This document shows positions 4,144-46,446 of a DNA stretch of 64,000 nucleotides, one piece after another. The stretch's first letter is position 1; each line of letters starts with the position of its first letter. Below the pieces are notes generated by a model. The model did not search any database, was not told where the DNA came from, and was given only the letters and a program-made list of their open reading frames with translations. The DNA lies in the IMG/VR virus record IMGVR_UViG_3300020724_000005; one strand, given 5' to 3'. This DNA comes from a virus. The translations under genes were made by a program, and so were the position numbers.

Positions 4144-4172
4144 AAGGTCTTTATAATAAATATGCGGACCTT
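4144..4172 (-). promoter_or_regulatory. hairpin abutting the HEG start codon, with the motif in its loop
   Basis: AAGGTC (4144..4149) pairs with GACCTT (4167..4172). The 17-nt loop contains ATAAATAT (4156..4163). In the transcript sense the 3' arm touches ATG 4143. Confidence 0.45.
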
Positions 4173-9407: not shown

Positions 9408-10127
9408 TTATATATTTGGTTTTTTATATTTGCACTTATCAAAATGCCACTGAGTCATTCCGTTATTTCCTCCAATTTTATTACAATGCGGACATTGTAT
9501 TTTTGGATTTTTTATTCCTAATCTATTAGTATTTCCTATTTTAGATATGCTCAATTTTCTTTTATGTTCTTCTGATTTAGATTTTCCCTTAAGAGCTCTG
9601 CTAATATTTGCCTTCTCTAATTCTGATTTTACTCTATTTTTTTGACCTTTAGAAATTGATTCTCTATGTTGTAAAGATAAACATATCCCTAATTTAGATT
9701 TTCTTATATTTAATTTAGTTTCTTCTGATCTTACTTTTCCCGTATTCGATTCTTTCATCTTTTTTTTAGTATCATCAGAAACTAAATGGCCTTTTCTGGA
9801 TAATCTATATAATCGTTTTGTTTCTTCAGAATGTTTAAAACCAAATTGACCTTGTCCACCATCTGTCATATTAACTAAAGGTCCCAATTTAAGATCTGCT
9901 CTTCCATAGAATATAATCCAAAATTTTTCTTTTTCACAGGCTTCTTCCCAAGTTAACCATTCTTCTGACATAATTTCTACTTTATATTCTGTAAGATTAA
10001 TCACATTATTCCAATGAATATTTCTGTTCTTTTTTGAATAAGATCTTTTATAGTTTTTATCTGATCCTATTCCTATATAAAAAACCTCATTCTTGTCTAG
10101 TCTTATATGACGATACACATATGCCAT
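9408..10127 (-). CDS. GIY-YIG homing endonuclease with NUMOD3-like repeats and a C-terminal CPHC zinc finger
   Basis: MAYVYRHIRLDKNEVFYIGIGSD; repeats HSEETKRLY, SDDTKKKMK, SEETKLNIR, SEEHKRKLS; C-terminus CPHCNKIGGNNGMTQWHFDKCKYK. AT-rich. Confidence 0.85.
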   Translation of the reverse strand: MAYVYRHIRLDKNEVFYIGIGSDKNYKRSYSKKNRNIHWNNVINLTEYKVEIMSEEWLTWEEACEKEKFWIIFYGRADLKLGPLVNMTDGGQGQFGFKHSEETKRLYRLSRKGHLVSDDTKKKMKESNTGKVRSEETKLNIRKSKLGICLSLQHRESISKGQKNRVKSELEKANISRALKGKSKSEEHKRKLSISKIGNTNRLGIKNPKIQCPHCNKIGGNNGMTQWHFDKCKYKKPNI

Positions 10128-10137
10128 AAAATAAAAA

Positions 10138-10232
10138 TGGTCCAAAGTGACAAAGAGCCTGCATGCTCTCTATCTCAAAGGACCAATAAGTTCTATTATA
10201 GATAACTCATGCAGGAGCTTCTATCTATAATA
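10138..10232 (-). promoter_or_regulatory. structured HEG leader (copy 1): two hairpins with complementary loops enclosed by a long-range helix
   Basis: Hairpin S1 pairs 10194..10204 with 10222..10232. Its loop CTGCAT is complementary to loop ATGCAG of hairpin 2 (stem 10154..10158 with 10165..10169). The outer helix pairs TGGTCC (10138..10143) with GGACCA (10180..10185). Confidence 0.6.
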
Positions 10233-10237
10233 AATAT
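10230..10237 (-). promoter_or_regulatory. GATATTTAT(A/T)A-type motif copy
   Basis: ATAAATATC overlaps the 5' arm of leader hairpin S1, 102 nt upstream of ATG 10127. Confidence 0.4.
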
Positions 10238-11157: not shown

Positions 11158-11166
11158 GAGTTAAAG
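11158..11166 (-). other. candidate recoding site CUU-UAA-CUC inside the flap-endonuclease reading frame
   Basis: The minus strand reads GGT CTT TAA CTC AAC, with TAA at 11161..11163. The frame is conserved on both sides (KVFIVDGL * LNNFLRSFAM). Confidence 0.5.
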
Positions 11167-11265
11167 ACCGTCGACTATGAAAACCTTTGAATTCAGGCTT
11201 AAGTCGACGGTCTGTGTATTATTTTGTGAAAGATCATTTATCATTTCTGCATATCTACTATTCAT
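11164..11265 (-). CDS. flap endonuclease 5' segment (34 codons), in frame with 10237..11133
   Basis: My own translation gives MNSRYAEMINDLSQNNTQTVDLSLNSKVFIVDGL. KVFIVDG is the canonical first catalytic Asp strand of FEN/5'-3' exonucleases. It is too short to appear in the ORF track. Confidence 0.6.
11165..11213 (-). other. 11-bp GC-rich hairpin inside the FEN 5' segment
   Basis: AGACCGTCGAC (11165..11175) pairs with GTCGACGGTCT (11203..11213), with a 27-nt loop. Confidence 0.6.
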
Positions 11266-11279
11266 ATTCTACTATAGAT

Positions 11280-11843
11280 TTAATTTTTATATTTACAATT
11301 ATCAAAATGCCACTGGATCATATTACTCTTATTTGCTATTTTTTTACAATGCGGACATTGGGCCAAAGGCCTATTTTTAGCAGATTCACTTTGTGCAATT
11401 TTAGTTTTTTCTGATGTTTTTAATTCTTTATTCCACGTATTCATTCCAATGAAAAATGATCCTGAATTTACTTTATGTGGAAATTTTTTATCTTTATTCC
11501 ATGGAATTCTATTTTTAATACTTTCAATATAGCATTGTTTAGCTTCTACTGATATTCTTATACTATGTCTACCTGTATTTTTATCTTTAATGCACATTAA
11601 ATGAAAAGCATATGTTAATTTTTTATTTTCAGGAAAACTTCTATGTAATAACCAGTGCGCTAATATATGCTCTCTAATAGTTAATAAAACTATATTTTTA
11701 TTGTTTGTATTTCTTCTATCACCAATTCCTCCCAAACATATTGGCACTATGTGATGAGACTCGTAATAAACCTCTTTATTTTTTGTTCTTTTCTCCAATT
11801 TACATTTGCAGACTAATCTATTATATATTTTTAAGTAATCCAT
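11280..11843 (-). CDS. HNH homing endonuclease with a C-terminal CPHC zinc finger
   Basis: MDYLKIYNRL...YYESHHIVPICLGG...NIVLLTIREHILAHWLL; C-terminus CPHCKKIANKSNMIQWHFDNCKYKN. I chose ATG 11843 by analogy with the paralogue at 45814. Confidence 0.85.
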   Translation of the reverse strand: MDYLKIYNRLVCKCKLEKRTKNKEVYYESHHIVPICLGGIGDRRNTNNKNIVLLTIREHILAHWLLHRSFPENKKLTYAFHLMCIKDKNTGRHSIRISVEAKQCYIESIKNRIPWNKDKKFPHKVNSGSFFIGMNTWNKELKTSEKTKIAQSESAKNRPLAQCPHCKKIANKSNMIQWHFDNCKYKN

Positions 11844-11852
11844 AAAATAAAA

Positions 11853-11953
11853 TGGACTCATTGAAGTCAAAGGTCGGGCAATGACCAATGATTCTAGAGT
11901 CCAATAAGTTTATTATAGATAGTTAATTGCCCTAACTTTCTATCTATAATAAA
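11853..11953 (-). promoter_or_regulatory. structured HEG leader (copy 2)
   Basis: Hairpin S1 pairs 11909..11922 with 11940..11953 (14 bp). Its loop GGGCAAT is complementary to loop ATTGCCC of hairpin 2 (stem 11872..11875 with 11883..11886). The outer helix pairs TGGACTC (11853..11859) with GAGTCCA (11897..11903). Confidence 0.6.
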
Positions 11954-11956
11954 TAC
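11949..11956 (-). promoter_or_regulatory. variant motif copy (ATAAATAC)
   Basis: It sits in the same position relative to leader hairpin S1 as the copy at 10230, 105 nt upstream of ATG 11843. Confidence 0.3.
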
Positions 11957-11963
11957 TTGATTT

Positions 11964-13046
11964 TTAAGAATCTTCAATATCAAATATATCATTTTTTGAT
12001 GGATCCTCTTCTTCTACAATATCAAATATCTCAGAACCTAGCGCCTTTATCCACTCATGCGAATATTCATTTTTATATTTACTTATCGCTGATGGAGAAT
12101 CATCAATAAAACCATGCACTGTCATTATAACTTTGCCTACAGCTGTAACTCCAGTTATGTGATTTTTATCGCATGAAATTCTAGTTCTCTTAGCAAATTC
12201 CACGTCTTTTCCATTTTTTGTAGCTTTTATTTTATTAGTCCCCGCCTTTGAAATATTCCCGAAAGTGATTACAAGAGTAGAGTCAAACCACATAGTATTA
12301 CCTCCTTTATTTTGTAAAGTTGGTTGTCCCATTGGATTATCTGGTTTTGCTACCCAAACTTTATTTATTGCTACAAGTGTATTGGTGTAGGGTTGGCTCT
12401 CCTTTCTCGACATAATGATACGTTGATTGATGAAGTTGCCAAATTGAGTCGACATAGCACCTGCAGCCCACTCATTATTATTAGTGGATTTTTCTATGCT
12501 CAGACGACAAGGTATAGACCCCACCGAGTCCCACAGAAAGCATATGTCATACGGTAGATTGCCTTTCTTCTGCTCGTCTAAGATGTCTGCCATAAATCCC
12601 GCCACGTCCTCTACGCACTGCATCTTTTCCCTGTCTACGTATATGAAGAAGCCACTGTAATCTACCACTTCTCCTGTTGACTTATCGACGACCTCATCAA
12701 ATTGTAAACCCATTGACCTTGCGTGCTCCCAAGACCATTTCATCTCGGTAACTATAAACACTGGGAGTATGCCCATCTTTTGAGCTTGCACTGCTGCTTC
12801 TAATAGCGCAGTAGTCTTGCCAGTATCTGAGTGTCCTCGTAGTAGAGTGATGTGTCCTATCGGTATGCCAGGGATCTGAAGTGTATCACTGAAAGCCTTG
12901 GAGAGAGGTATCCACCTCGTCTCCTTGAACTTTACAGATGTGCTTGATAGGTTCTTGGACTTCTTGAATTTGTCCAGATTGAATTCGCCTTTGATGGCTG
13001 TAGAGAGAGCCCCATTGAGGCTCTCTTTCTTTTCTGATTTTGCCAT
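11964..13046 (-). CDS. RecA-superfamily recombinase/ATPase (UvsX/RadA-like)
   Basis: Walker A GHSDTGKTT, Walker B-like ICFLWDSVGS, 360 aa. It lies next to the SSB gene. Confidence 0.55.
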   Translation of the reverse strand: MAKSEKKESLNGALSTAIKGEFNLDKFKKSKNLSSTSVKFKETRWIPLSKAFSDTLQIPGIPIGHITLLRGHSDTGKTTALLEAAVQAQKMGILPVFIVTEMKWSWEHARSMGLQFDEVVDKSTGEVVDYSGFFIYVDREKMQCVEDVAGFMADILDEQKKGNLPYDICFLWDSVGSIPCRLSIEKSTNNNEWAAGAMSTQFGNFINQRIIMSRKESQPYTNTLVAINKVWVAKPDNPMGQPTLQNKGGNTMWFDSTLVITFGNISKAGTNKIKATKNGKDVEFAKRTRISCDKNHITGVTAVGKVIMTVHGFIDDSPSAISKYKNEYSHEWIKALGSEIFDIVEEEDPSKNDIFDIEDS

Positions 13047-25479: not shown

Positions 25480-25487
25480 ATAAATAT
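25480..25487 (-). promoter_or_regulatory. GATATTTAT(A/T)A-type motif copy
   Basis: ATAAATATC, 5 nt upstream of ATG 25474. Confidence 0.35.
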
Positions 25488-26529: not shown

Positions 26530-26598
26530 GTGTAACTGTGTTTATTATATATATTGAGGTTCTAAGTTTTCCCCTCTATAGAATATAATGAAATTTAT

Positions 26599-26642
26599 CT
26601 AAAAAGAAAAAAGCTCCTTTTGAGTGGAGCTTCTTTTTTTAT
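26599..26642 (-). terminator. rho-independent terminator after the tube gene (looks bidirectional)
   Basis: AAGCTCC (26611..26617) pairs with GGAGCTT (26626..26632), flanked by an A-run upstream and a T-run downstream. On the minus strand the stem is followed by TTTTTTCTTTTT. Confidence 0.7.
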
Positions 26643-40814: not shown

Positions 40815-40822
40815 ATAAATAT
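40815..40822 (-). promoter_or_regulatory. GATATTTAT(A/T)A-type motif copy
   Basis: ATAAATATC, 14 nt upstream of ATG 40800. Confidence 0.4.
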
Positions 40823-42159: not shown

Positions 42160-42167
42160 ATAAATAT
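42160..42167 (-). promoter_or_regulatory. motif copy
   Basis: ATAAATAT, 4 nt upstream of ATG 42155. Confidence 0.3.
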
Positions 42168-42183
42168 AGAATACTTTTTGATG

Positions 42184-42213
42184 AAAAACAAAAAAGCCCG
42201 GTAAAAACCGGGC
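42184..42213 (-). terminator. rho-independent terminator after the major capsid gene
   Basis: GCCCGGT (42196..42202) pairs with ACCGGGC (42207..42213) around a 4-nt loop. On the minus strand the stem is followed by TTTTTTGTTTTT. Confidence 0.75.
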
Positions 42214-42242
42214 CTTTCTTTTATTATTGTCTTAGATTAAAC

Positions 42243-45708: not shown

Positions 45709-45716
45709 ATATTTAT
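45709..45716 (+). promoter_or_regulatory. GATATTTAT(A/T)A-type motif copy in plus orientation
   Basis: GATATTTATAA read on the plus strand, 97 nt upstream of the only plus-strand gene (ATG 45814). Confidence 0.45.
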
Positions 45717-45720
45717 AATA

Positions 45721-45802
45721 AATTGCTACTGGTACTAGTAATTAACAAAGATATTGAGTCATCATAGATGGAGTTGTACCAGAACTCTGTTTATTTTGAC
45801 TC
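45721..45802 (+). promoter_or_regulatory. structured HEG leader (copy 3, plus strand)
   Basis: Hairpin S1 pairs AATTGCTA with TAGTAATT (45721..45728 with 45736..45743) around loop CTGGTAC. Hairpin 2 pairs GAGTT with AACTC (45771..45775 with 45783..45787) around loop GTACCAG. The outer helix pairs GAGTCA (45756..45761) with TGACTC (45797..45802). Confidence 0.6.
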
Positions 45803-45813
45803 ACTTTTATTTT

Positions 45814-46446
45814 ATGGATCATCTCAAAATTTACAATAGGATCATTGCAAAGGCTAAATTAGAAGGGAGAAAAAAACTTTCTAGAGATCATAATGATTAT
45901 GTCTACTACGAAGCTCATCATATCATTCCAAGATGTTTAGGAGGTATGAATGATAAAACTAATATAGTACTACTTACAGCTAGAGAGCATTTTATCGTCC
46001 ATTGGTTATTATATGAAACTGATAATGGAAATGTAAAATTAGCTTTGGCATTTTTTATGATGTGTAATACTAAAGATCACAATCAATTAAGATACATTCC
46101 AAGTTCTAGAATTATAGAATATTCAAAAAATCAACACTCTAAGTATCACCACTCAAAACTACCTAAATTTAAAAAAATAAATTCTGATTTAAGAAAAGGA
46201 AAATCTATAGTAGAACAGTTTGGAAAGCAAAAAGCTTTAGAATGTTCAATTAAAAAATCTAATTCTTTAAAACTGAGCTATCTAAATGACCCCACACTAT
46301 CAAAAAGAAAAAGTGATTCTATGAAAGGAAAAAATAAAATTGTTCGTAAATTTACATGCCCACATTGCGGAAAAATAGGAGGAATTTCTACTATGAAACA
46401 GAAACATCTTCCTATATGTAAATCAGCTCAAACAGCAAATCCCTGA
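45814..46446 (+). CDS. HNH homing endonuclease with a C-terminal CPHC zinc finger
   Basis: MDHLKIYNRIIAKAKLEGRKK...YYEAHHIIPRCLGG...NIVLLTAREHFIVHWLL; C-terminus CPHCGKIGGISTMKQKHLPICK. The track ORF starts at TTG 45754; I prefer ATG 45814. Confidence 0.85.
   Translation: MDHLKIYNRIIAKAKLEGRKKLSRDHNDYVYYEAHHIIPRCLGGMNDKTNIVLLTAREHFIVHWLLYETDNGNVKLALAFFMMCNTKDHNQLRYIPSSRIIEYSKNQHSKYHHSKLPKFKKINSDLRKGKSIVEQFGKQKALECSIKKSNSLKLSYLNDPTLSKRKSDSMKGKNKIVRKFTCPHCGKIGGISTMKQKHLPICKSAQTANP

Follow-up and report, generated by a model that had tools for sequence, protein, structure and literature searches.

A predicted kissing-loop leader RNA upstream of homing-endonuclease genes in phage mobile cassettes

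The region upstream of an HNH homing endonuclease gene (HEG) in a 64,000-nt stretch of viral DNA (IMG/VR record IMGVR_UViG_3300020724_000005; hereafter, the window) is one copy of an undescribed leader RNA, which we found only in viral sequences among those searched. The leader contains two hairpins whose 7-nt loops are complementary, and it probably controls how much of the gene behind it is made, although this function is inferred from sequence comparison in the absence of transcript-end, structure-probing or expression data. The window holds three copies, and no others, each heading a free-standing HEG and each with a different complementary loop pair. Public viral contigs hold well over 100 more copies, which fall into two classes. 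Class A has a phage promoter-like motif and a palindrome, S1, and always precedes a HEG, whereas class B has a Bacteroidetes-type promoter, lacks the S1 outer stem, and mostly precedes replication-organiser genes.

Architecture of the leader and its mobile cassette

A sequence-only reading of the window had proposed that this leader (copy 2 in the window) forms a 14-bp stem, a second hairpin with a loop complementary to the first, and a third helix ending 9 nt before the start codon. We checked each coordinate on the minus strand and all were confirmed. The 5’ arm of the S1 outer stem (11953..11940, UUUAUUAUAGAUAG) pairs with 11922..11909 (CUAUCUAUAAUAAA) through 14 Watson-Crick pairs. The inner segment (11939..11923) is AAAGUUAGGGCAAUUAA, and presents loop L1, GGGCAAU, at 11932..11926. 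Hairpin 2 (11886..11872) is GGUC-AUUGCCC-GACC, with loop L2, AUUGCCC, at 11882..11876; the energy of the L1/L2 duplex is -9.5 kcal/mol. Hairpin 2 (stem 11886..11883 with 11875..11872) caps a long hairpin, HL (11853..11903), that also comprises a middle stem (11894..11889 with 11869..11863) and a basal helix, H3, in which UGGACUC (11903..11897) pairs with GAGUCCA (11859..11853). A U-rich tract of nine nt (UUUUAUUUU, 11852..11844) separates HL from the AUG at 11843..11841. The unconstrained MFE fold reproduced S1, H3, the middle stem and hairpin 2 at -34.9 kcal/mol (z = -4.72), and 0 of 200 shuffled sequences folded as well.

The flanks AACTTATTGG and TTTTATTTTATGG recur exactly at copy 1, as the sequence-only reading had noted. 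However, that reading also stated that every pairing segment differs between copies 1 and 2 and is compensated; the S1 outer stem is in fact identical in the two copies, and only the inner stem, both loops, hairpin 2, the middle stem and H3 differ. In addition, comparative data favour a 4-bp inner stem (G11936-C11922; GUUA at 11936..11933 with UAAC at 11925..11922) on a 13-bp outer stem, rather than the three inner pairs first described. Between S1 and HL lies a single-stranded linker, CUUAU (11908..11904), part of an (A)AACUUAUUGG block that is nearly invariant in both classes, including in sequences found by patterns that did not specify it; no pairing partner was found for it. An upstream in-frame AUG at 11862 and a TTG start at 11888 were not conserved in other copies.

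The ORF behind the leader (11280..11843, minus strand, 187 aa) matched PHROG 655 ‘homing endonuclease’ (E = 6e-34), and tblastn found annotated phage HNH/homing endonucleases at about 36% identity. Copy 1 of the leader (10125..10237, minus strand, 71.9 bits), with L1 CCUGCAUG (10215..10208) and L2 CAUGCAGG (10165..10158), heads a GIY-YIG/NUMOD3 HEG at 9408..10127. Copy 3, which the sequence-only reading had missed, lies on the plus strand (45709..45816, 39.9 bits) and lacks the S1 3’ arm; its L1, CUGGUAC (45729..45735), is complementary to its L2, GUACCAG (45776..45782), and it heads an HNH HEG at 45814..46446 that is transcribed opposite to its neighbours.

Alignment with a relative that lacks the HEG (contig L167) delimited the insert. 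L167 reads TTCTTAAAAAT directly followed by TAAATCTAT, whereas in the window these sequences are separated by an insert beginning CAAGTATTTATT and ending ATAAAAAT, flanked by an AAAAAT repeat. The inserted cassette (11283..11963, minus strand, boundaries good to a few nt) lies between uvsX and the 5’-3’ exonuclease gene and begins 4 nt before the promoter-like motif, so the leader is part of the mobile cassette. Consistent with this, no leader lies within 4 kb in 72 of 80 uvsX relatives, and the uvsX-to-exo gap is 114-149 nt in most.

The sequence-only reading also remarked that a promoter-like motif overlaps the S1 5’ arm, and this was borne out. The motif of copy 2 (GTATTTAT, 11949..11956, minus strand) conforms to a window consensus, ATATTTAT, that occurs 29 times in the window against 4.8 expected. 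Of these, 24 lie on the coding strand, usually 4-31 nt before an ATG, and the motif opens all three leaders. Three of the ATGs are only 4-5 nt downstream, which implies a start of transcription about +5/+6 after the motif, near 11944/11943 in copy 2; this start site is inferred, not measured. A sigma-70 scan found fewer sites than in shuffles (10 against 14.4), and a sigma-70 promoter (TATAAT) in the S1 3’ arm was not supported, the host type using other promoters. Class B leaders instead carry a TTTG-N20-TAnnTTTG host-type promoter ending 4-6 nt before hairpin 1.

Comparative support for loop-loop pairing

To assess whether the loop complementarity is maintained, we compared leaders across viral contigs. 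A MAFFT alignment of all class A leaders misaligned the loops and was replaced with covariance-model alignments. The loop-loop helix is not part of the structure of either covariance model, yet in 33 distinct class A leaders it was 98.1% paired with double changes at 6 of 7 positions, and in the class B seed it was 92% paired with double changes at 5 of 7 positions. All five helices covary. In the class A leaders the S1 outer helix was 96.9% paired, with 4 pairs changed on both sides and several G-U pairs; the inner helix was 100% paired, with all 4 pairs changed on both sides; H3 was 96% paired, with 6 of 7 pairs doubly changed; and the middle stem plus hairpin 2 were 87% paired, with 10 of 10 doubly changed. 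At least 19 distinct loop pairs were recovered, with duplex energies of -6.6 to -12.1 kcal/mol. G-U cells outnumbered A-C cells 41:15 in class A and 16:4 in class B, which points to RNA of the sense strand.

Complementarity was exactly 7 nt, at a fixed position, in 80 of 90 distinct leaders, whereas the commonest value in shuffles was 5 nt (796 of 1,800 trials) and 160 trials reached 7 nt or more at an unconstrained position. The flanks of L1 and L2 are not complementary, and we therefore rejected an extended antisense duplex in place of a loop-loop helix.

The element was not found outside viral contigs in the collections searched. A flank pattern gave 44 hits in 185,579 species genomes, all chance, none having the hairpins or the loop complementarity at the expected place. 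BLAST against 50,697 cultured phage records, which is insensitive for a motif like this, gave no true match to the region or to either leader class, the weak hits being chance matches to terminators and coding DNA. Rfam 15 gave no hits in the whole window at gathering thresholds, and permissive searches of the leader and of a class B leader gave only noise at E of 1.8 or worse. A ribozyme reading (hammerhead, pistol, twister) was rejected, as the conserved cores appear to be absent, L2 is a terminal loop rather than an internal-loop strand, and Rfam gave no hit. Searches with the HEGs themselves were less productive than DNA patterns: the copy 2 HEG found only two near-identical loci, and the copy 3 HEG found none.

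The element is not HEG-specific. The same leader precedes at least 4 HEG types and several non-HEG genes, and the sister class heads replication-organiser and other genes in siphophage-like contigs. An ATG follows in every member, 9-13 nt after HL, even when the search pattern did not require it. The tract between HL and the ATG is conserved in all members and is 67-75% U, with U at -1 to -4, against 52% A upstream of the other 42 genes in the window, of which 21 have A at -3. In Flavobacterium johnsoniae, initiation is tuned by secondary structure and favoured by A at -3 (PMC6847099).

Candidate functions

We hold with moderate confidence that region 11844..11956 is the 5’ leader of a mobile HEG cassette and that its compact kissing fold is a portable expression module, which would cap the mRNA 5’ end, isolate the start region from whatever lies upstream, and set a low, defined level of translation for the gene behind it, although the direction of the effect (kiss as on or off) is undetermined. 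Transcripts initiated by the cassette’s own promoter-like motif would carry a short 5’-terminal hairpin, a linker of about 14 nt, HL and the start region, the same layout as copy 3 and class B. Transcripts reading through from uvsX would contain both S1 arms and fold the full 14-bp stem, swallowing most of the linker and probably preventing, or at least changing, the kiss. In class A, mRNAs of different origin would fold differently, the logic known from T4 I-TevI, segB and mobE, where a promoter placed inside a hairpin distinguishes read-through from promoter-initiated RNAs (PMC2988022). The T4 mechanism does not transfer directly, however, since in class A the hairpin that holds the promoter (S1) is not the one next to the start codon. 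Whether the kiss is compatible with a fully formed HL, and incompatible with the full S1, rests only on a rough length estimate. The model also leaves the nearly invariant linker unexplained, and a constitutive kiss in class B gives no obvious switch.

The main rival, which we consider possible but less likely, is a leader attenuator, in which HL plus the U run is an intrinsic terminator and pairing of L1 with the nascent L2 changes how fast, or whether, the terminator hairpin completes. The kiss, and in class A the length of S1, would then set the fraction of polymerases that reach the gene, with a terminated product of about 100 nt. HL has a nearly invariant GG/CC base directly followed by U5-7, its tail resembles the T6-N-T5 tails of two terminator-shaped hairpins in the window, and the U-rich tract is unlike the phage’s normal start regions. 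Terminator scores of the d'Aubenton-Carafa type were +15.9 and +18.3 for class B and +19.6 for copy 1, against +8.9 and +35.1 for those two hairpins, and chance BLAST hits of the 3’ half fell on annotated terminators of T5 and PR1. However, copy 2 scored only +2.6 and copy 3 scored -25.6, a simple terminator scan did not call HL, and variants such as contig L266 have UUUAAAUUUUU after the stem. The cassettes sit inside the uvsX-exo-helicase block, which is contiguous in the HEG-less relatives examined, and there is no exact ATATTTAT motif between the cassette and the next gene; an efficient terminator would therefore be polar. Furthermore, attenuation does not require an ATG 9-13 nt after the stem in every member, and a terminator paired with a constitutive cis antiterminator has no obvious purpose.

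A more speculative and rather unlikely reading is that the covarying loop pair is a programmable address, letting each cassette’s 5’-terminal hairpin recognise only its own start-region hairpin, as a sensor of transcript origin in cis and/or as a specificity code in trans between co-resident cassettes and co-infecting phages. That would be an RNA-only, c4-like or plasmid-like incompatibility system carried by homing-endonuclease cassettes and early operons of Bacteroidota phages. Action in trans specifically, with L1 of hairpin 1, alone or in a processed or terminated leader RNA, pairing with L2 of other mRNA molecules of the same cassette type, is doubtful. In its favour, the loops are hypervariable while the promoter, S1 arms, linker and start region are almost invariant, and otherwise nearly identical backbones differ by 1-2 compensated loop changes (for example GCGGAAU, GGGGAAU, CCGGAAU, GGGCAAU and GUGCGAU). 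Every contig seen with two or three copies (the window, five others and two contig pairs) carries different loop pairs, and by our estimate two long adjacent hairpins may be unable to kiss within one molecule. P1 c4, a co-transcribed antisense RNA that appears to share an operon with its targets (cited in PMC8201110), offers a parallel, as do RNAI/RNAII and CopA/CopT. However, with about 13 loop types of uneven frequency, we estimate that all-different copies within a genome are expected by chance roughly a quarter of the time, so this is not significant. There is no evidence for a separate small RNA, the same loop pair occurs with unrelated HEGs and different pairs with related ones, and the Rfam C4 family did not match.

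Still less likely is a polymerase-modifying leader like the put RNAs of phage HK022, in which the two-hairpin fold would bind the elongating RNA polymerase and make it resistant to downstream terminators, keeping genes behind the cassette or the class B promoter expressed. Hairpin 1 begins at or within a few nt of the predicted start site in both promoter classes, shape is conserved while stem sequences vary, and the elements sit in long co-directional gene arrays upstream of essential genes, but this model does not need the fixed ATG and start region, and a kissing interaction does not appear to be a feature of put RNA. Finally, a DNA-level element serving recombination, cassette mobility or protein binding is very unlikely: although the S1 arms form a nearly perfect palindrome over the promoter-like motif, S1-type palindromes occur without the rest of the leader, and unrelated ORFs behind the same leader and broken copies with junctions inside it fit recombination within the leader as described for PeSLs (PMC4122927), G-U pairs are tolerated 3-4 times more often than A-C, a strand-specific and therefore RNA signature, complementarity is confined to exactly the two 7-nt loops, loop pairs do not follow the HEG protein family and so are not operators for the encoded enzyme (I-TevI-style autorepression), and a shuffling role may coexist with the RNA role but does not explain the covariation.

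Relationship to known systems

Structured leaders that restrain phage homing endonucleases are known, but only as single hairpins that hide a Shine-Dalgarno site in coliphage-type systems. The leader described here is a separate RNA family, abundant in uncultured viral contigs and shared by T4-like and siphophage-like genomes under two different promoter types, in phages whose nearest cultured relatives infect hosts that do not use Shine-Dalgarno pairing. It offers a natural, modular promoter-leader-start unit for Bacteroidota, where expression tools are scarce, a test case for how start sites are gated without Shine-Dalgarno pairing, and a possible example of RNA address codes on mobile elements. 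Should it prove to be only a stabilising cap, it is still a new Rfam-grade family.

The closest known systems are the hairpins with embedded promoters of T4-type HEGs (I-TevI, I-TevII, I-TevIII, segB, Aeh1 mobE) and the seg43(25) hairpin of Aeromonas phage 25 (PMC2988022). These likewise place a structured leader directly upstream of a phage HEG inside a polycistronic unit. They have a phage promoter inside a hairpin arm, where our leader has a promoter-like motif whose start site is only inferred, and in seg43(25), as here, a very stable hairpin ends just upstream of the start region without covering it. In our leader, however, the tract UUUUAUUUU is unpaired in the MFE fold and there is no SD-like sequence to sequester, the hosts of the nearest relatives being Flavobacterium, whose ribosomes do not use SD (PMC6847099). 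The 7-bp loop-loop helix predicted to link the two hairpins is not described for any T4 HEG, and the same leader also serves non-HEG genes.

The PeSL cassettes of T4-like phages (PMC2839356, PMC4122927) are also short, conserved, repeated modules that contain a promoter and a stem-loop, flank variable or mobile genes, and apparently act as points of exchange between unrelated ORFs; here the insert boundary lies at the leader’s edge. A PeSL, however, is a terminator stem-loop followed by a sigma-70-type early promoter, whereas here the promoter comes first and is followed by two hairpins and the start codon, and PeSLs have no loop-loop pairing and no fixed link to the ATG. The guanidine-II riboswitch (mini-ykkC; PMC9300104) similarly has two neighbouring hairpins joined by a linker of about 13 nt in a 5’ UTR just before a start region, with a loop-loop kiss proposed to change access to that region, but it has conserved ACGR tetraloops, two C-G kissing pairs and a ligand, whereas the loops here are 7 nt, fully Watson-Crick, hypervariable and covarying, with no conserved loop nucleotides to form a pocket.

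In the antisense systems with 6-7-nt loops (P1/P7 c4 RNA with icd/ant, ColE1 RNAI/RNAII, R1 CopA/CopT), fully complementary hairpin loops appear to act as the recognition step, with specificity changed by paired loop substitutions, and c4 appears to be co-transcribed on the same strand, upstream of its targets next to a start region. Those systems act between molecules and have demonstrated small RNAs, whereas here both loops lie about 50 nt apart in one leader. The put RNAs of phage HK022 resemble the leader as two-hairpin RNAs made immediately downstream of a phage promoter and acting in cis, but they seem to have neither loop-loop pairing nor a link to a start codon.

Position and copies of the leader in the window

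To test the sequence-only reading, which had placed a kissing-loop leader upstream of an HNH homing endonuclease gene (HEG), we checked each of its features on the minus strand, and all were present. The S1 arms (11953..11940 and 11922..11909) form 14 Watson-Crick pairs, and the inner segment carries the loop GGGCAAU (11932..11926). Hairpin 2 (11886..11872) is GGUC-AUUGCCC-GACC, and H3 pairs UGGACUC (11903..11897) with GAGUCCA (11859..11853). The sequence UUUUAUUUU then separates H3 from AUG 11843. An unconstrained fold of 11835..11965 gave the same stems plus a middle stem, with an energy of -34.9 kcal/mol and z = -4.72, and none of 200 shuffles folded as well. The flanks AACTTATTGG and TTTTATTTTATGG recur exactly at copy 1. 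That reading had also held that every pairing segment differs between copies 1 and 2; this is incorrect, as the S1 outer stem is identical in the two.

The window holds three copies. The third lies on the + strand at 45709..45816, ahead of another HNH gene. A covariance model built from class A leaders (defined below) scored copies 2, 1 and 3 at 127.9, 71.9 and 39.9 bits, and the only other hit with E below 0.01 was the antisense strand of copy 2, at 26.6 bits. The two complementary loops, L1 and L2, differ in every copy: CCUGCAUG and CAUGCAGG in copy 1, GGGCAAU and AUUGCCC in copy 2, and CUGGUAC and GUACCAG in copy 3. All three downstream ORFs match PHROG homing-endonuclease families, copies 2 and 3 matching PHROG 655 and copy 1 matching PHROG 314 with a NUMOD3 motif. 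The GIY-YIG HEG of copy 1 and the HNH HEG of copy 2 end in the same module (9408-9500 and 11280-11370, minus strand), QCPHCxKIxxxxxMxQWHFDxCKYK, which looks like a zinc-ribbon DNA-binding unit shared between catalytic families. It also occurs in the viral contigs L013 and L027, and is duplicated in the L013 HEG.

The window is a T4-like myophage, in which Pfam identified gp32, a RecA/UvsX-like recombinase, a 5'-3' exonuclease, a DnaB-type helicase and the prohead protease. The nearest cultured relative is Flavobacterium phage vB_FspM_immuto, with 59% identity in UvsX, and in immuto the ssb, recombinase, exonuclease and helicase genes are contiguous. At least 596 viral contigs encode a UvsX relative, of which we fetched 80. 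In 72 of these 80 no leader lies within 4 kb, and the uvsX-to-exo gap is 114-149 nt in most. Alignment with the HEG-less contig L167 placed the insert to within a few nt: the native sequence TTCTTAAAAAT|TAAATCTAT is interrupted by CAAGTATTTATT...leader...HEG...ATAAAAAT. The insert begins 4 nt before the promoter-like motif and ends at the last sense codon of the HEG; the leader is therefore part of the mobile cassette. The insertion is flanked by a short direct repeat, AAAAAT (11283-11288 and 11959-11964), and the stop codon of the HEG is supplied by, or duplicated from, the native sequence TAAATCTAT. A strong hairpin between the HEG and the exonuclease gene (11166-11228, minus strand), GACCGUCGAC...GUCGACGGUC, is native intergenic sequence conserved in HEG-less relatives (L167, and contigs L168 and L245) and not part of the cassette. 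It has no U run (score -71), so it is probably not a terminator. At copy 1, the listed helicase ORF (TTG start at 9442) overlaps the end of the GIY-YIG HEG (9408-9442). An ATG at about 9400, just after the HEG stop, is the more likely helicase start, so that the cassette abuts the helicase gene directly.

Distribution of the element and comparative support for the predicted fold

Three pattern scans of IMG/VR recovered the element, with the S1 arms and any interior yielding 26 loci. Of 51 distinct sequences from newly fetched loci, about 30 are real elements and 21 are chance matches in coding DNA that lack L2. Two classes emerged. Class A opens with (G)ATATTTAT, has the S1 palindrome, and in every case precedes a HEG, including several HNH types, GIY-YIG and Seg-like. 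Class B lacks the S1 outer stem and is preceded by a Bacteroidetes-type promoter (TTTG, about 20 nt, TAnnTTTG) ending 4-6 nt before hairpin 1. It occurs in siphophage-like contigs (within L029-L121 and L247-L328; for example L036 492-592 and L038 7433-7533), where it mostly heads genes that we read by eye as DUF1376-type replication organisers, inside long co-directional early arrays, and occasionally a HEG or some other gene. Some contigs carry two class B copies with different loop pairs (L102, L090). A class B model also detected the three window copies at 37-47 bits, so the two classes are one family.

Other arrangements were also observed. Palindromes with the same S1 arms (TATTATAGATAG...CTATCTATAATA) but other interiors occur without the linker, the long hairpin (HL) or the start-region module, upstream of other genes (contigs L009 9117-9152; L015 1059-1110 and L028 837-888; L021 11814-11845); the S1 palindrome may therefore be an independent module. 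Three further cassettes appear to be decaying. The contig L189 (5057-5320) keeps a nearly intact leader in front of an HNH ORF cut off at the catalytic motif. In L024 (3283-3388) the S1 palindrome and hairpin 1 are deleted, joining the promoter directly to the linker ahead of a 96-aa HEG remnant, and in L058 (13864-13963) the 5' half of hairpin 1 is replaced by unrelated sequence.

The element was not found elsewhere. The same flank pattern in 185,579 species genomes gave 44 hits, all of them chance, without the loop complementarity at the expected place. Rfam 15 has no match, nor did BLAST against cultured phages find one, although BLAST is insensitive for such a motif. Full-text literature searches for kissing loops with homing endonucleases or Bacteroidetes phages found nothing relevant.

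We next asked whether the complementarity of the two loops is maintained across the family. In 80 of 90 distinct leaders, the longest complement between the 50 nt upstream of the linker and the HL interior is exactly 7 nt. It sits at a fixed place, with L2 at position 17-20 of about 47 and L1 ending 11-17 nt before the linker. In 1,800 shuffle trials the commonest longest complement was 5 nt (796 trials), and 160 trials reached 7 nt or more, at an unconstrained position. In class A (34 leaders aligned to the model, 33 distinct), the loop-loop (kissing) helix is 98.1% paired, with 6 of 7 pairs changed on both sides. The corresponding values are 100% and 4 of 4 for the inner stem, 96% and 6 of 7 for H3, 87% and 10 of 10 for the middle stem plus H2, and 96.9% and 4 of 13, plus several G-U pairs, for the S1 outer stem. 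The loop-loop helix is not in the structure of the model, so the alignment cannot be fitted to it. The whole structure beat all 500 column shuffles, and when the 3' partners were slid by 1-3 columns only 27-45% of cells paired. In the class B MAFFT seed the loop-loop helix is 92% paired with 5 of 7 pairs doubly changed, the unpaired cells coming from two sequences that MAFFT shifted by 2 columns. Seven loop types occur among 41 distinct class B rows.

Altogether we observed at least 19 loop pairs, with duplex energies from -6.6 to -12.1 kcal/mol. Backbones that are otherwise nearly identical differ only by compensated loop changes, for example GCGGAAU, GGGGAAU, CCGGAAU, GGGCAAU and GUGCGAU. 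G-U cells outnumber A-C cells 41:15 in class A and 16:4 in class B, which points to selection of the pairing in RNA of the coding strand, not in DNA or in the antisense strand.

Inferred transcript starts and the start region

The promoter-like motif ATATTTAT, in the wider form (G)ATATTTAT(A/T), occurs 29 times in the window against 4.8 expected (for example at 4156-4163, 25480-25487, 40815-40822, 42160-42167 and 45709-45716). Of these, 24 are on the coding strand, and the + strand site at 45709 heads the only + strand gene. Nineteen of the 24 coding-strand sites are followed within 4-31 nt by an ATG that opens an ORF of at least 50 aa. At three sites (42167, 25487 and 3394) the ATG follows after only 4-5 nt, suggesting leaderless or nearly leaderless mRNAs. 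If the motif is a promoter, transcription must start about 5-6 nt after it, which for copy 2 falls at 11944/11943, inside the S1 5' arm. Such an RNA would begin with a short, fully paired hairpin (GAUAG...CUAUC plus the inner stem), followed by a linker of about 14 nt, the same layout as copy 3 (12-nt linker) and class B (13-15 nt, with hairpin 1 at the predicted +1). On this inference, only read-through RNA from uvsX contains both arms and can form the full 14-bp S1. Copy 3 is transcribed against its neighbours, so it cannot receive read-through from a co-directional gene, and it lacks the 3' arm.

In every member an ATG follows HL after 9-13 nt of U-rich sequence, even where the search pattern did not ask for it. 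The tract is 67-75% U, with U at -1 to -4. In contrast, the other 42 ATG-start genes of the window have 52% A at -12..-1, with A at -3 in 21 and U at -3 in only 5. In F. johnsoniae, initiation depends on low structure and is favoured by A at -3 (PMC6847099); by that rule this is an unusual and probably weak start region.

Candidate functions and relation to known systems

We favor, with moderate confidence, a reading in which the element is a portable leader that caps the 5' end and insulates and restrains the start region, with S1 distinguishing transcript origin, following the logic of T4 I-TevI, segB and mobE (PMC2988022). The start sites, the difference between read-through and promoter-initiated RNAs, and the effect on expression are inferred. 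The candidacy of S1 as an origin sensor rests on a rough length estimate rather than a computation: at 2.8 Å per base pair against about 6 Å per linker nucleotide, a coaxial 7-bp kiss is just possible with a short hairpin 1 and a 13-15-nt linker, but not with the 14-bp S1 and a 5-9-nt linker. The nearly invariant linker AACUUAUUGG is unexplained by this model or by any of the alternatives that follow.

A leader attenuator, in which the kiss tunes a terminator, is a possible but less likely alternative. A GG/CC-closed stem followed by a U run also describes an intrinsic terminator, and the U-rich tract after HL has the same T6-N-T5 form as the tails of two terminator-shaped hairpins on the minus strand of the window (26560-26600 and 42170-42215; GAAGCUCC...GGAGCUU and GGCCCGG...CCGGGCU). 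A d'Aubenton-Carafa-type score gave +15.9 and +18.3 for two class B examples, +19.6 for copy 1, +2.6 for copy 2 and -25.6 for copy 3, compared with +8.9 and +35.1 for those two hairpins. Against efficient termination, the cassettes sit inside an operon of replication genes, and no exact ATATTTAT motif lies between each cassette and the next gene. A trans-acting or dimerising specificity code, like c4 of P1/P7 or plasmid antisense RNAs, is doubtful, and a put-like polymerase modifier is more doubtful still. A DNA-level recombination or operator element is the least likely reading, although it may coexist with the RNA role as PeSL-like shuffling (PMC4122927).

The comparative signal is exceptionally clean, and we regard the element as a new, large and unstudied RNA family, with its probable role in expression still an inference. 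It probably works most like the T4-type HEG leaders, and like the seg43(25) hairpin that stops just short of the start region, but it lacks the defining feature of the T4-type leaders, which is sequestration of a Shine-Dalgarno site. It shares modular, repeated use with PeSLs, but its parts are arranged in the opposite order. It resembles the guanidine-II riboswitch in outline (two hairpins, a 13-nt linker and a predicted kiss next to a start region; PMC9300104), but it has no conserved loops.
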